A DNA stretch of 64,000 nt from SAR202 cluster bacterium (GTDB lineage Bacteria; Chloroflexota; Dehalococcoidia; Lucifugimonadales; UBA3495): positions 6,578 to 70,577 of the forward strand of contig VGZV01000005.1 in assembly GCA_016872385.1 (NCBI GenBank). Reading direction: 5' to 3'. Of the stretch, positions 11,102-55,206 are shown piece after piece; positions within the stretch are counted from its first letter, which is position 1; each line of letters opens with the position of its first letter. The notes beneath the pieces were generated by a model that saw nothing but the letters and a program-made list of their open reading frames with translations, did not search any database and was not told the origin of the DNA. A program made the position numbers and the translations under genes.

Positions 11102-11194
11102 GCGCCGGGGTTGCTGAGGCGTGCATTAATAACTAACCACCCTCATCCCAACCTTCTCCCTCTATGGGAGAAGGAATTCCTCCTCTCCCTTTGT

Positions 11195-11372
11195 AGGCTT
11201 TGCCTCAAAACACCTGCGTCTAACTGAAACTGTCATCCTGAGCGAAGCGAAGGATCTAAAATGCAAGTTGCATAGGTGCCTATCGTAGATTATTGCCCAG
11301 TTTTCTAGATTCTTCGTCGTCCCGATAACATCGGGACTCCTCAGAATGACACTTTTGAGGCAAGACCCCCCT
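11195..11372. mobile_element. Non-autonomous MITE-like element, copy 1, inserted in a REP hairpin loop
   Basis: Ends aggctttgcctcaaaa ... ttttgaggcaagacccccct; flanked by (T)TGT on both sides; interior is a GTCATCCTGAGCGAAGCGAAGGATCT-type palindrome. Confidence 0.7.
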
Positions 11373-11477
11373 TGTGGAAGAGGATTGAGGTGAGGGGGAA
11401 AGAATTGCGCCCACTGATTAGTTTTCAGTTCATGGCTAAGTAACCAGGCCCGGGAAAGCGGCTAAAGTCCTGGGCCA

Positions 11478-12833
11478 TTACTGCGCAGCCAGCCGGTACA
11501 CAGTGCCCTCATTCAGGTTGGTCACGTACAGTTCTCCTGCTGCGTCTTCACCCAGGGAGCTGTGGCCTGCGCCTTTGCCTGCCACGGCAACGCTCCGCCG
11601 CCACGTGCCGGTATCATCCCGCGACGCCGCCCATAAAGTCCCGCTGCAAAAGTCGGTGAAGAAGTAGGTCCCCGCCGCGCTGGGGATGGCCTTGCCTCGG
11701 TAAACGTATCCTCCAGTCACTGAGCAGCCCTCTCCATTGTTGGCGTACTCAACGATTGGCAAGACCAGGCCTGTGCGGTCGCAATTGGCGGCAGGCGAGT
11801 AACAGTGCGTGCCTTCCATGCGGTTCCAGCCAAAATTCAGGCCGCCCTTGCTGCCCGCAGCCGCAAAGTCCACCTCCTCCCAAGCGTTCTGGCCCACGTC
11901 GCCTATGTATAGGTCGCCGGTCAGCCGGTCAAAACTGAACCTCCAGGGGTTGCGCAGCCCGTAGGCCCAGATTTCCCCACGGACATTAGCCTGCCCGGCA
12001 AAAGGGTTATCCGGCGGAATGGTGTAAAGGTCGCCCCGGTCCACGTCAATGCGCAGCAGTTTGCCCAGCAGCTGGCCCAAATTCTGGCCGTTGCCCCGTG
12101 GGTCGCCGCCGGAGCCGCCATCGCCGACGCCAATCCACAGCATCCCATCGGGGCCAAAGGCCAGCATCCCGCCATTATGGTTCGGGAAAGGCTGGTCAAT
12201 GGTCAGAATGGTCCTGGCGCTGGACGGGTCGGCGGTTGCGCGATTGCCCGGAGCGGTGTACCTGGCCACTACTGTGTTGCCCCGCAGGTCGGTGTAGTTG
12301 ACGAACAAATAGCCGTTGCCCTGAAAGCCAGGGTGAAAGGCCAGTCCCAGCAATCCCTGCTCACTGCCGGTGGTGCGCAGCAGAGGAGAGATATCCAGGA
12401 ATGGCTCCGTCCTTGTCGTTCCCTTCTTGACCACCTTAATCTTGCCGCGCCGCTCCACCACATAAACATCGCCGCTGCCGTCTCCGGCATGGGTCAGAAA
12501 CAAGGGCTGTTGCAGCCCGCTGATTACCGGCGTCAGGGCCAGCTTCGGCGGCTGGGGAGCAGCTGTAGGTGAAGGCGCGGGTGTTGGCGTTGGTGTTGGT
12601 ATCGTTGTAGCAGTGGCAGGCGCGACCGGCGTGGCCGTTGGCGGTGCAGGAGTGGTGGGTTTGGCGCCAGTGGTGGGAGTGAGTTCTGGAGACAGTGCGG
12701 GCGTGGAAGTGGGGCTGGCTGGCAGAGGTGGGATAGGCGTTGCCGTGTTCACAGGCGGCATTGGAGCATCCTGTAAGCGGGCACATGCGGCCAGCATGAG
12801 TAGAAGGACTGTGGCGAGAACAGCGGCAGGCAT
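11478..12833 (-). CDS. PQQ-dependent sugar dehydrogenase (glucose/sorbosone dehydrogenase family) lipoprotein
   Basis: Lipobox LMLAAC, Pro/Thr linker, EQGLLGLAFHP, NHNGGMLAFGPDG, AYGLRNPWRFSFD, GDVGQNAWEEVD. Confidence 0.9.
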   Translation of the reverse strand: MPAAVLATVLLLMLAACARLQDAPMPPVNTATPIPPLPASPTSTPALSPELTPTTGAKPTTPAPPTATPVAPATATTIPTPTPTPAPSPTAAPQPPKLALTPVISGLQQPLFLTHAGDGSGDVYVVERRGKIKVVKKGTTRTEPFLDISPLLRTTGSEQGLLGLAFHPGFQGNGYLFVNYTDLRGNTVVARYTAPGNRATADPSSARTILTIDQPFPNHNGGMLAFGPDGMLWIGVGDGGSGGDPRGNGQNLGQLLGKLLRIDVDRGDLYTIPPDNPFAGQANVRGEIWAYGLRNPWRFSFDRLTGDLYIGDVGQNAWEEVDFAAAGSKGGLNFGWNRMEGTHCYSPAANCDRTGLVLPIVEYANNGEGCSVTGGYVYRGKAIPSAAGTYFFTDFCSGTLWAASRDDTGTWRRSVAVAGKGAGHSSLGEDAAGELYVTNLNEGTVYRLAAQ

Positions 12834-13056
12834 GGGCGGCCTCGCAGTTTACAAGTATGCTTTTTACAGTCTAACAATAGCTGGCTGTTTTTGTAACATG
12901 GACGACGTAAATGGATGATAATGCGACCATTTTATAGTGGTTACGGCATGGACATGGCGCTTTACGTCAAACACTGGCAAAGAGGTTCCGTGAGGGGTAT
13001 CATATGCGCCAACGGCGCTGCTGGCAGAGCGCCAAACTTGAGTGAGAGGTGCAGTC

Positions 13057-13938
13057 ATGGCGTATCAGCGAGAGGGAGCCCAACCCCAGGCAATGGAGCG
13101 CCAGCGCAATAAACCAGCCCAGGTGGAAGCCGGTGGTCTCAAGTTTGTCATCAAGCACGAAGTTTGGGACCAGAACATCCACGACCACGGCGACCAGGGA
13201 GTGGCCATCCTGGTCTTGGGACAGGTGAGCGGCAAGGAGACCACCCTGCTGCGGTTCAACTGCTTTGACATTGACCGCAGCTATATTTATGGCCCAGAAG
13301 GCAAGAACAAGCTGTGCCGCATGGACCCCACGGTGGACGGCAATGCCATTGCCTGGACTATGCGGCAGCTCAAGGACAACCTTGCCACCATGATTACCGA
13401 AGCCGGGTATGAGTCCGTGGCCCGCCAGGTCAAGGTGCGGGAAGTGCAGGCCAAGCTGGGCGAAGTGGAGTCTCTGGCCCGCAAGAGCTTTGCCACTGAC
13501 CGCAGCACCGTCAAGCACAACCGCGGCACCGACATGTTTGAAGCGGGCAACATCCGGTTTGGCCTGGAGATGCGCACCCAGAGCAACGGCGATGGCGGCC
13601 TGGCCATCCACGTGCTCTCCGACCTGGCGGGCACGCCGGGGAAGGCCTACATGGAAGAGACGGAACTGCTGGCCTTTGACTGCTTCCGGGAGGCCCCGCA
13701 CTACCACTACGGTCCTCGGAACAAGAACTACCGCATATTCTGGGACAAGGTCCTGGTGCCCGATACCCTGGAATGGACGCTGCAGCAGTTCAAGGCTGGC
13801 AAGCTGCGGGACATGATCCAACGGGCTGGGTACCCTGGCGTGGCGGCCGATATTGACCAGGGCCTGATTGACGCTGTGCTCCCCGTGGTGGAAGCCAAGG
13901 CCCGGGAAATGCAGCCCAAGGTCAAGGCCAGCCGGTAG
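13057..13938 (+). CDS. Uncharacterised protein of two tandem homologous domains
   Basis: Repeat 1 LLRFNCFDIDRSYIYGP, repeat 2 LLAFDCFREAPHYHYGP; each followed by a W-T-[ML] and MIxxAGY segment. Start ATG 13057 after GAGG. Confidence 0.8.
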   Translation: MAYQREGAQPQAMERQRNKPAQVEAGGLKFVIKHEVWDQNIHDHGDQGVAILVLGQVSGKETTLLRFNCFDIDRSYIYGPEGKNKLCRMDPTVDGNAIAWTMRQLKDNLATMITEAGYESVARQVKVREVQAKLGEVESLARKSFATDRSTVKHNRGTDMFEAGNIRFGLEMRTQSNGDGGLAIHVLSDLAGTPGKAYMEETELLAFDCFREAPHYHYGPRNKNYRIFWDKVLVPDTLEWTLQQFKAGKLRDMIQRAGYPGVAADIDQGLIDAVLPVVEAKAREMQPKVKASR

Positions 13939-54056: not shown

Positions 54057-54406
54057 GGCCGGACCTCAATTCTGGCCTGGCAACCAGGGCAGGCAATCTG
54101 CCCCAGGGAGCCGGAGCCGTCATTGATGGAGCTGTAAAACTCCTGAAGGAAGGCCAGGTCTGCGGTGAACATGCGCTCCACCACGCCGGTGTTCACTTCC
54201 CGCAGGGAGCCCAAGCGGGTAATAACCCGGGACAGGATGATGATGCTCAAGTACGCCTCATTGTTCTTCACCCGGGCATCCCGCAAAGGAACAATCTCGT
54301 CCATGGCCGTGGCCAGGCGCATAGCGCCCTGGCGGTGGACAGTGCCTTCCTGGTCCACGTAGCCCTTGGGCAGCGTGAACTCATACTCGGTCTGCAACAT
54401 CGTCAT
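54026..54406 (-). CDS. Tail assembly chaperone (G-like)
   Basis: EYEFTLPKGYVD..VHRQGAMRLATAMDE, LSRVITRLG, ERMFTADLAFLQEFY, CPGC. Confidence 0.85.
   Translation of the reverse strand: MTMLQTEYEFTLPKGYVDQEGTVHRQGAMRLATAMDEIVPLRDARVKNNEAYLSIIILSRVITRLGSLREVNTGVVERMFTADLAFLQEFYSSINDGSGSLGQIACPGCQARIEVRPGELLAPVAA
54050..54056 (-). promoter_or_regulatory. Putative -1 ribosomal slippery site G-GGG-GAA
   Basis: Codons CCG GGG GAA (P117-G118-E119); a -1 slip enters the DUF6760-like frame. Confidence 0.65.
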
Positions 54407-54843
54407 TTCACCCTCTCCAGGCCCTCATGGGCAATGGTGATTTCTTCGATGGCCACTGCCTGGTCTTCGGCGTTCACGTCCGGGCCTTTCCAACTGGAGG
54501 GCCAGCCATTAACAAAGTTGAACCGGGCCATCTCTTCCCCTGCCTGGTTATACATAATGACCGAGCCGTTGGCCCTGGCTTCAGCCACCTTGCCGTGAAT
54601 TACTTTTTGCCGCCAGTCCCACAGGGCCTTGTCATCGGTGATGCCCCGGCGAAGCACTATGTCATCCCAGGTCAGGTCGCCGGGAATTTTCTGTATCACG
54701 GACTTGCCCTTGGCATCCACTGCCTGGTGTGTAACTACCTGGGACGAGTTATTGAACCCGCTGGCCTCTTTAAAGAAAGCGGAGACCACGCCATCCACGT
54801 CCAGGGCAAAATGTGCGCCTATTAAGGGGTCTCTTTCAGCCAT
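54403..54843 (-). CDS. Phage tail tube protein (Afp1-like, T4 gp19 family)
   Basis: FALDVDG..FKEASG, KIPGDLTWDDIVLRRGIT, RFNFVNGWPSSWKGP, EEITIAHEG. Confidence 0.94.
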   Translation of the reverse strand: MAERDPLIGAHFALDVDGVVSAFFKEASGFNNSSQVVTHQAVDAKGKSVIQKIPGDLTWDDIVLRRGITDDKALWDWRQKVIHGKVAEARANGSVIMYNQAGEEMARFNFVNGWPSSWKGPDVNAEDQAVAIEEITIAHEGLERVK

Positions 54844-54934
54844 CGCTGGTAGCCTCCTTGCTGCTTACTTGCTGCGCTCTTCAGGATTTGGACTAATTCT
54901 GCTTGACGGTCGCGTACATCTCCTCTCCCCTTGC

Positions 54935-55073
54935 GGGGGCGTTGCCTCAAAAGTCCCAGATTGCATTTTCGTCGTTCCGGCGAAAGCCGGAACCCAGATA
55001 TGGCCGAACCTCGCAGCGGGCCTGGACACCGGCTTTCGCCGGTGTGACGATTGAGTTTTGAGGCAAGACCCCT
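54935..55073. mobile_element. MITE-like element, copy 3, between sheath and tube genes
   Basis: 18-bp ends gggggcgttgcctcaaaa / ttttgaggcaagacccct, flanked by TGC; removal restores the hairpin TCCTCTCCCC-TTGC-GGGAGAGGA. Confidence 0.75.
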
Positions 55074-55206
55074 TGCGGGAGAGGATTTAGGCGAGGGGAA
55101 CTCCCCCCTCATCCCTTCGACTGTGTTCAGGGCAGGCCCAACCTTCTCCCACGCGGGAAGAAGGAGGCTCGCCGACATTTTCAAGCCTGCTTGTTATGTG
55201 GACTCT

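Follow-up and report, generated by a model that had tools for sequence, protein, structure and literature searches.

Miniature elements at the tips of REP-like hairpins in a SAR202 genome, and a related lineage of transposase-bearing elements in Dehalococcoidia

Elements and hairpins of the window

The stretch of 64,000 nucleotides analysed here (the window) belongs to contig VGZV01000005.1 of a SAR202 cluster bacterium (Chloroflexota; Dehalococcoidia; assembly GCA_016872385.1) and corresponds to G000:C5:6578-70577, G000 being the assembly that holds it (2.70 Mb in 111 contigs, 61% GC, 97% complete). Its intergenic regions contain copies of a miniature inverted-repeat transposable element (MITE) that split short hairpins resembling repetitive extragenic palindromes (REPs), and the coordinates of both are collected in Table 1. 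The MITE family has 15-bp inverted ends, GGNNTTGCCTCAAAA, found on both sides of all three full copies in the window, and the elements start four bases outside the core of that end, as GG-NN-TTGCCTCAAAA. The core occurs six times in the window against 1.13 expected, a number reached in 0 of 100 shuffles, and the six matches form three inverted pairs; a sequence-only reading of this DNA had named these six positions, and both direct reading and a motif search confirm them. That reading counted three insertions, which is right for full copies, and passed over a fourth, one-ended relative whose intact end GGCTTTGCCCGAAAA at 20863-20877 (minus-strand reading) adjoins the REP half CTGCTAGGG GGAGAAAG. 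All MITE copies in the window are intergenic.

The interior of copy 1 is a single long imperfect palindrome (GTCATCCTGAG...CTCAGAATGAC), 84-92% identical to seven of the eight other A-subfamily copies in the genome and 73% identical to the divergent one at C6:49966. Copies 2 and 3 align over their full length in opposite orientations, bearing out the earlier view that these two have an inverted interior in common and that copy 1, here assigned to a different subfamily, carries another palindrome. Copy 3 is 100% identical to G000:C28:22773-22905, which occupies a different REP, and its last movement was therefore recent. The B-type interior (13989-14093 and 54953-55055) is made up of a pair of CGTC-tagged palindromes, such as CGTCGTTCCGGCGAAAGCCGGAAC and CGTCACACCGGCGAAAGCCGGTGT, modules that are also found alone in many genomes of the family; CGTC-tagged palindromes are a REP super-family of Di Nocera et al. 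(PMC3733652).

The target hairpins are short, repeated, extragenic palindromes that often stand as inverted doublets, as is expected of REPs. Neither the GTAG nor the CGTC tag of the described REP super-families (PMC3733652) is carried by them, and REP is used loosely ("REP-like") for the target hairpins of G000. The genome holds about 152 intact, empty hairpins of this family, nine of them in the window, and 33 adjacent pairs. Approximately half have a CCCTCACC-N5 tail on one side; counted by orientation, a CCTCACC tail is present on 75 hairpins, and another count gave 40 left-hand and 37 right-hand tails. The GGTGAGG tail motif at copy 1 is typical of the family. The two empty hairpins with an ACAA loop that had been singled out earlier (4060-4080 and 47413-47433) are real, both on reading the sequence and in a genome-wide hairpin search. 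The genome also encodes a single RAYT-like (IS200-type Y1) open reading frame (ORF), at G000:C13:34416-34868 on the minus strand, with HVH (PNHVHGIL) and FYEH (NFYEHVI) motifs, flanked on one side by CCCCC-TTTGCAAA-GGGGG palindromes and not by hairpins of the CCTCTCCC type.

Table 1. MITE copies, their duplicated flanks and the REP-like hairpins of the window
Feature	Position	Strand	Sequence and remarks
Empty REP hairpin	4060-4080	+	CCTCTCCC ACAAG GGGAGAGG; CCCTCACC tail upstream
Intact REP hairpin	11153-11173	+	CTTCTCCC TCTAT GGGAGAAG; inverted doublet with the REP split by copy 1
Copy 1, left REP arm	11179-11186		CCTCCTCT
Copy 1, left 9-bp duplication	11187-11195	.	CCCTTTGTA; partner 11368-11376 CCCCTTGTG, 7/9 identical
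MITE copy 1	11196-11367	.	A subfamily, 172 bp; ends GGCTTTGCCTCAAAA and TTTTGAGGCAAGACC
Copy 1, right duplication, right REP arm and tail	11368-11398	.	GAAGAGG ATTGA GGTGAGGGGG
Copy 2, left 9-bp duplication	13965-13973	.	TCTTGCAGG; partner 14109-14117 ACTTGCAGG, 8/9 identical
MITE copy 2	13974-14108	+	B subfamily, 135 bp; ends GGTCTTGCCTCAAAA and TTTTGAGGCAACGCC
One-ended MITE relative (fourth copy)	20776-20877	-	Other end lost; absent from the earlier reading
Empty REP hairpin	47413-47433	+	CCTCTTCC ACAAG GGGAGAGG; tail upstream
Copy 3, left REP arm	54921-54928	.	TCCTCTCC
Copy 3, left 9-bp duplication	54929-54937	.	CCTTGCGGG; partner 55071-55079 identical, 9/9
MITE copy 3	54938-55070	-	B subfamily, 133 bp; opposite in orientation to copy 2
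Copy 3, right REP arm and tail	55080-55098		AGAGGATTTAGGCGAGGGG
Second, intact REP-like hairpin in the copy 3 spacer	55143-55163	.	CTTCTCCC ACGCG GGAAGAAG

Target duplications and the position of insertion

Removal of copy 3 together with one duplicate leaves a perfect CCTCTCCC-CTTGC-GGGAGAGG hairpin; the same operation gives a hairpin with one mismatch at copy 1 and a partial, decayed hairpin at copy 2, much as the sequence-only reading had described its excisions in silico. That reading proposed a duplication of TGT or TGC. The flanks are indeed duplicated, but the trinucleotide ((T)TGY) is merely the core of a 9-bp direct repeat. The length is set by sites that are not palindromic, for instance C16:34240 (CCTCAGGCA) and C18:13075 (ACGCCGGTT), with 9-10 bp at the sites on C31 and C38, and because such non-hairpin sites show clean 9-bp repeats it is independent of palindromic context. 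The same repeats rule out a duplication of 3-4 bp of the IS3-like kind, as in IS1397. Furthermore, the loop is asymmetric (CTTGC as opposed to GCAAG), and a repeat in direct orientation is therefore a duplication and not the two halves of a split palindrome. With a duplication of 9 bp, the staggered cuts take in 1-3 bp of each stem in addition to the loop.

The filled site of copy 3 (54921-55087) folds as a single long hairpin of -53.5 kcal/mol (z = -7.7), and whatever the function of a REP stem-loop may be, it may persist at a filled site. The spacer in which copy 3 and two REPs lie (54844-55206) measures 363 bp, compared with 51 bp in the same-genus genome G002 (L002 1449-1499), where the counterpart has neither REP nor MITE; since the divergence of the two lineages, all repeats of this spacer have thus either been acquired on one side or disappeared on the other.

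Genome-wide distribution and the preference for hairpin tips

Limits of the elements were fixed by pairing ends across the genome with varying tip length, along with direct reading, and a reversed end pattern served as the control for end searches. Exact end matches in G000 number 45, against none for the control. Of 41 relatives, 14 have the end pattern, as do 56 of the 301 genomes examined from the order, where the reversed control is near zero. A stricter genome-wide re-scan of G000, requiring a duplication identity of at least 7/9, yields 47 complete copies, 24 with a perfect 9/9 duplication and the rest with 7-8/9. The MITEs are non-coding and 110-182 bp long, nested composites extending to 276 bp. 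An end search of the whole genome with tabulated flanks, the check that the sequence-only reading had proposed, finds flanks that are non-random and carry duplications of 9 bp.

Adjacency to a REP arm depends on the type of end, being found for 38 of 58 TTGCCTCAAAA ends, 14 of 35 TTGCCCGAAAA ends and none of 33 D-type ends (GGCCTTGCCCAAAAAGTATGG...), compared with 2.5% of random positions. In a strict test, a copy passed if the stem was 7 bp or longer, contained no more than one mismatch and had its dyad no more than 1 bp from the centre of the duplication. By this measure 14 of 31 non-D copies sit on the axis of a CCTCTCCC-N5-GGGAGAGG-type hairpin, and four more lie in decayed hairpins; random positions pass in 1.4% of cases. 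Copies classed as D pass in 2 of 16 instances, one of which (C12:38154) is a misfiled B copy, so that the corrected figure is about 1 in 15. MITE copies in G008 and G160 are likewise at hairpin tips, including a stem of other sequence (CCCCCGCTCC/GGAGCGGGGG). The bias toward hairpin tips is thus strong, but the site-specific insertion proposed earlier is a preference and not an absolute rule, because copies with clean 9-bp duplications also occur outside hairpins, for example at G000:C16:34240 and C81:4332.

Where the REP is 21 nt long, one cut lies 5 nt from its stem base and the other 7 nt, never both 6 nt, which hints at an additional local preference at the joint. A CC-N5-GG motif was considered as the sole determinant and is ruled out by the hairpin-tip duplications TGAAATCAA (L078) and TGTCCAACG (G000:C4:45298).

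MITE subfamilies with different targets

The subfamilies constitute a natural experiment in target choice. The D subfamily, with about 33 copies (for instance C18:13075-13225, C17:35722-35884 and C31:192-302) and ends GGCCTTGCCCAAAAAGTATGGATTTCG ... CATTTTGGGCAAAGCC, has clean 9-bp duplications and avoids REP hairpins. Its members are often nested in other MITEs (C26:7846, C67:1691, C52:13777, C104:3070 and C20:3362), two of them at the same CACCCTGAG site of their own family. D and F copies have related interiors and different end cores, TTGCCCAAAA versus TTGTTCCAAA, and F copies go into hairpins, as at C4:45298 (12-bp stems) and C38:18108. Since related bodies with different end cores differ in target choice, specificity resides in the transposase and not in the body of the MITE.

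The same comparison bears on the possibility that insertion is near random and that only copies in harmless REP hairpins have survived. All copies in the window are intergenic and REPs are plausible as neutral landing places, both as such a filter would have it. However, selection cannot account for duplications centred within 1 bp of the dyad rather than anywhere in a REP of 21-40 bp; D copies of similar size and number persist at some 33 non-hairpin sites, so that tolerated sites abound; and both members of the youngest, 100% identical pair are in hairpins. Retention without targeting is accordingly very unlikely.

Transposase-bearing relatives

Elements that carry genes between the same ends are found in other Dehalococcoidia. 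In G150, two ends 3.6 kb apart bound an element with a 9/10-bp duplication that encodes a protein of 460 aa, with a SWIM zinc finger (Pfam, 8e-7) and a DDE_Tnp_1 domain (PF01609, 76.7 bits, 2.7e-21), and the Y-2-R-3-E-6-K signature is visible in the transposase translation (YHKRSNVETTFHMVK). In the same-genus genome G002 (C100), a homologous SWIM+DDE transposase gene immediately adjoins the end GGCTTTGCCTCAAAA, with a second TTGCCTCAAAAGTCC site 50 bp inward. An ENA contig supplies a complete 2.4-kb element whose transposase is 87% identical to that of G002; besides the end GGCCTTGCCTCAAAA, this element has TGCCTCAAAA three times in tandem, and its target duplication measures 10 bp. A scan of the collection returned 536 related loci, mostly from Dehalococcoidia, and autonomous elements with the same ends were found in G002, L055, L064, L143 and others. 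Full-length relatives are 2.4-4.5 kb long, bear cargo and have 9/10-bp duplications. NCBI names one relative of the transposase "IS5 family transposase", and the nearest annotated plasmid relatives by tblastn are IS903B, at about 24% identity.

The target habit of these elements resembles that of the MITEs. Sixteen complete elements have a clean 9/10-bp duplication, and nine of them (L055, L064, L067, L069, L071, L076, L078, L092 and L099) are at the tips of REP-like hairpins whose loops range from about 1 to 10 nt and whose stem sequences differ; examples are CCCCCTCT|CCTCCGAGG|AGAGGGGG and CCCCTTCTCC|TGAAATCAA|GGAGAAGGGG. When placed on a tree of the transposases, the hairpin-located elements make up 8 of 10 in one clade versus 1 of 6 in the other, a clustering matched by 12-13 of 500 label shuffles in a small sample whose kin are not independent.

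Autonomous elements examined for cargo (L055, L064, L068, L071, L092 and L099) are 3-4.5 kb long, and what they carry varies: it includes an N6_N4 DNA methylase (L068), a Bro-N protein (L071), a small GIY-YIG-like protein (L064) and, in L092 and L099, type IIG/type I-like methylases, one of them with a specificity subunit. Two relatives of 2.3 kb, L050 and L052 (the G008:C4:401832 and G008:C6:199636 regions), have ends GGCTTTGCACCAAAA and a transposase without the SWIM part; they lie in two different REPs with the duplication GGGGAAGGTT, at the foot of the hairpin on its 3' side and not at its tip, which is another register in the same type of repeat. Lone ends in G004, G008, G019 and others, considered as partner ends, proved mostly to be ordinary MITEs or solo ends, and the G004:C3 region contains nested IS701/IS1182-like elements and no partner end.

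Assembly G000 is itself broken at about 20 contigs by a high-copy insertion sequence (IS), seen among other places at C5:71064-71217 (past the right end of the window), C7:1-125, C11, C13, C37 and C49. The sequence at its end is CGAATTGACTCACAATAAAAGTTACCGAAGG...TTGCCTCAAAA...GTTACCGAAGG, after which comes an ORF starting MMTRGSVEEYVTAVQERYRRASRREK, and all copies are preceded by GTCAA plus 5-6 variable bases, GTCAA/TTGAC being an inverted pair; the interior is unassembled, and the sole internal copy, on C63, is truncated. This IS was rejected as the partner of the MITEs, the TTGCCTCAAAA motif lying about 40 bp inside its end and its termini being unrelated. Also rejected were the three PF01609 hits of the genome, two IS427-like two-ORF elements and one weak match on C110 (27.7 bits), none with MITE ends.

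These candidates belong to a second alternative, in which another family of transposases with 9-bp duplications (of the IS1, IS4, IS256 or ISAs1 type) moves the MITEs, and the match of ends to the SWIM-DDE elements is coincidence or cross-mobilisation. The lack of a partner in the MITEs' own genome speaks for it, as does the presence of the core motif inside the unassembled IS at the contig breaks. Set against this are the internal position of that motif between unrelated termini, the IS427-like nature of the genome's own PF01609 matches, the agreement of duplication length and target habit with the SWIM-DDE elements, and the finding that such elements, in several independent genomes, terminate in exactly the 15-bp MITE end. 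Mobilisation by another family therefore appears highly improbable.

Probable origin of the MITEs in a hairpin-homing transposon lineage

The MITEs are very probably gene-less derivatives of a hairpin-homing transposon lineage that is common among Dehalococcoidia, whose transposase combines a SWIM domain with a DDE domain of IS4/IS5 type and is distantly IS903-like. The non-coding bodies of the MITEs and the transposase-bearing elements with the same ends elsewhere support the earlier suggestion of a non-autonomous element mobilised in trans.

Several observations weigh against this conclusion. Searching its proteins with the SWIM-DDE transposase as query turned up no partner in G000, an assembly 97% complete in 111 contigs; a transposase gene bounded by the same ends, which the sequence-only reading had called for, exists in the same-genus G002 and in other Dehalococcoidia but not in the MITEs' own assembly. 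Hence the link between MITE and transposase is one of common ends, duplication length and target habit, not of co-occurrence. Given same-end elements in relatives and none at home, mobilisation in trans is the only reading, and for want of a partner the G000 copies are either immobile now or reliant on an element that is unassembled or lost. The comparison of filled and empty sites in related genomes (G001 and G002) gave no orthologous empty site: neither genome is syntenic at copies 1 and 2, and G002 lacks the REP as well at copy 3. The best NCBIfam model for the transposase, transpos_IS5_2, scores 106.1 bits, under its cut-off of 140 bits. Positions 3-4 of the end vary by subfamily (TC, CG, TG, CT, CC), which is not what one would normally expect at the very ends of the DNA on which a transposase acts, and the well-targeted stems are all CT-rich on the 5' arm, so that a sequence motif instead of structure is possible.

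A third alternative, in which the mobile unit would include the hairpin arms (REP-half, MITE and REP-half as one longer inverted repeat, possibly spread by the RAYT), can be given next to no credence and is already largely refuted: three B copies do have identical immediate flanks (TCCTCTCC CCTTGCGGG ... CCTTGCGGG AGAGGA), the genome does contain a RAYT-like ORF and the filled site does fold into one long hairpin, but the loop is duplicated directly and not inverted, the REP tail is asymmetric and the MITE can face either way with respect to it, sites holding identical MITEs have unlike N5 spacers and tails (TTTAG GCGAGGGG, CCTGG CTGAGGGG and TAGAG GTGAGGGG at three of them), the same ends have 9-bp duplications at non-REP sites, about 150 REPs are empty, and in other genomes unrelated hairpins are interrupted by elements that have these ends and carry genes.

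Taking the MITEs as derivatives of the SWIM-DDE lineage, transposition may be pictured as follows. The transposase would bind the 15-bp ends GG-NN-TTGCCTCAAAA, presumably through the TGCCTCAAAA core, which is repeated subterminally in full-length elements. The element would then be excised or copied by the cut-and-paste or copy-out chemistry of DDE enzymes, and, to judge from the duplications, joined to its target by cuts staggered by 9 bp, sometimes by 10 bp in full-length copies. Capture of the target is biased toward short palindromes, with the stagger centred no more than 1 bp from the axis of CCTCTCCC-loop-GGGAGAGG-type hairpins. The duplication thereby takes in the loop along with 0-4 bp from each stem, and the halves of the stem come to flank the element. 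Comparison of the subfamilies and of full-length elements shows that the transposase, rather than the MITE body, sets the preference.

The enzyme may read a symmetric sequence, in the way that IS903 reads WTTYA-N9-TRAAW, or else an extruded hairpin or cruciform. The evidence favours recognition of the dyad itself, as opposed to a fixed flanking motif, because the number of stem base pairs in the duplication (0-4) and the length of the loop (about 1-10 nt) vary while the dyad offset stays within 1 bp. A more tentative and rather doubtful extension is that the transposase reads the shape of DNA, as an extruded hairpin or cruciform or as a hairpin in single-stranded DNA at a replication fork, possibly by way of the SWIM domain, and measures its stagger from the tip. 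If so, this would be a structure-guided DDE transposase, and the use of varied loops and stems within 1 bp of the dyad would be explained. For the relatives of 3-4.5 kb, REP hairpins would in that case be safe places at which to dock restriction-modification cargo. Whatever the mode of recognition, the full-length elements do carry restriction-modification and other cargo, and hairpin homing may let defence genes settle harmlessly in these small genomes.

The lineage is large, related proteins numbering more than 7,000 when the threshold is E<=1e-20, and is annotated only as "IS5 family transposase"; no published description of a SWIM + IS5-type transposase lineage was found in the literature. 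Homing of ISs to REP palindromes is extended to this lineage and to a new phylum, Chloroflexota (Dehalococcoidia). For annotation, the MITEs account for many composite hairpin repeats in the spacers of Dehalococcoidia, and their exact ends, together with the 9-bp duplication rule, can be used to mask them.

Comparison with known systems

Bacterial MITEs derived from ISs include Correia/NEMIS, RUP, ERIC and Nezha (PMC3733652). Like these, the elements described here are short, non-coding and multicopy, have inverted ends and target duplications, are mobilised in trans and fold into long hairpins. Aiming at the tips of other hairpin repeats is not reported for Correia/NEMIS, RUP, ERIC or Nezha, whereas the present MITE has internal CGTC-tagged palindromes and lands in a second palindrome family. 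Insertion of a repeat into small palindromes has been noted in a Chloroflexi genome (PMC3733652).

Among transposases, IS903 offers the closest parallel in its catalytic domain, for which IS903B and transpos_IS5_2 are the nearest annotated matches, and the 9-bp duplication and symmetric target are features of both. The ends may be alike as well, that of IS903 beginning GGCTTTG. The differences are considerable: identity is only about 24%, the NCBIfam score is under the cut-off, the enzyme described here has an added N-terminal SWIM zinc finger, and the elements reach 2.4-4.5 kb with cargo. The duplications of IS903 are 9 bp long and its preferred target is the palindrome WTTYA-N9-TRAAW (PMC2577343, Table 1), an AT-rich motif in contrast to the GC-rich hairpins used here.

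ISs that target REPs are documented in the IS3, IS110, IS4, IS256 and IS5 families (PMC1525189, Tobes & Pareja 2006), with IS1397 and ISKpn1 (IS3), ISPpu9, ISPpu10 and ISPa11 (IS110), ISRm22 (IS4) and ISNm1106 (IS5) as examples. As in those cases, insertion here is at a fixed place within a repeated extragenic palindrome, and specificity is thought to be set by the transposase; ISRm22 inserts at the palindrome axis with a direct repeat, and ISNm1106 is a REP-associated member of the IS5 family (PMC1525189). The lineage in Chloroflexota differs in its SWIM + DDE enzyme, in a 9-bp duplication that covers the loop and the tops of the stems, in the predominance of MITEs among the G000 copies and in its acceptance of stems and loops of several sequences. 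This functional class is defined by insertions that concentrate at a single place within a REP well beyond random expectation, as those of the MITEs do, and the hairpin-homing MITEs with their SWIM-DDE lineage are a well-supported further case of the known REP-targeting habit of insertion sequences.

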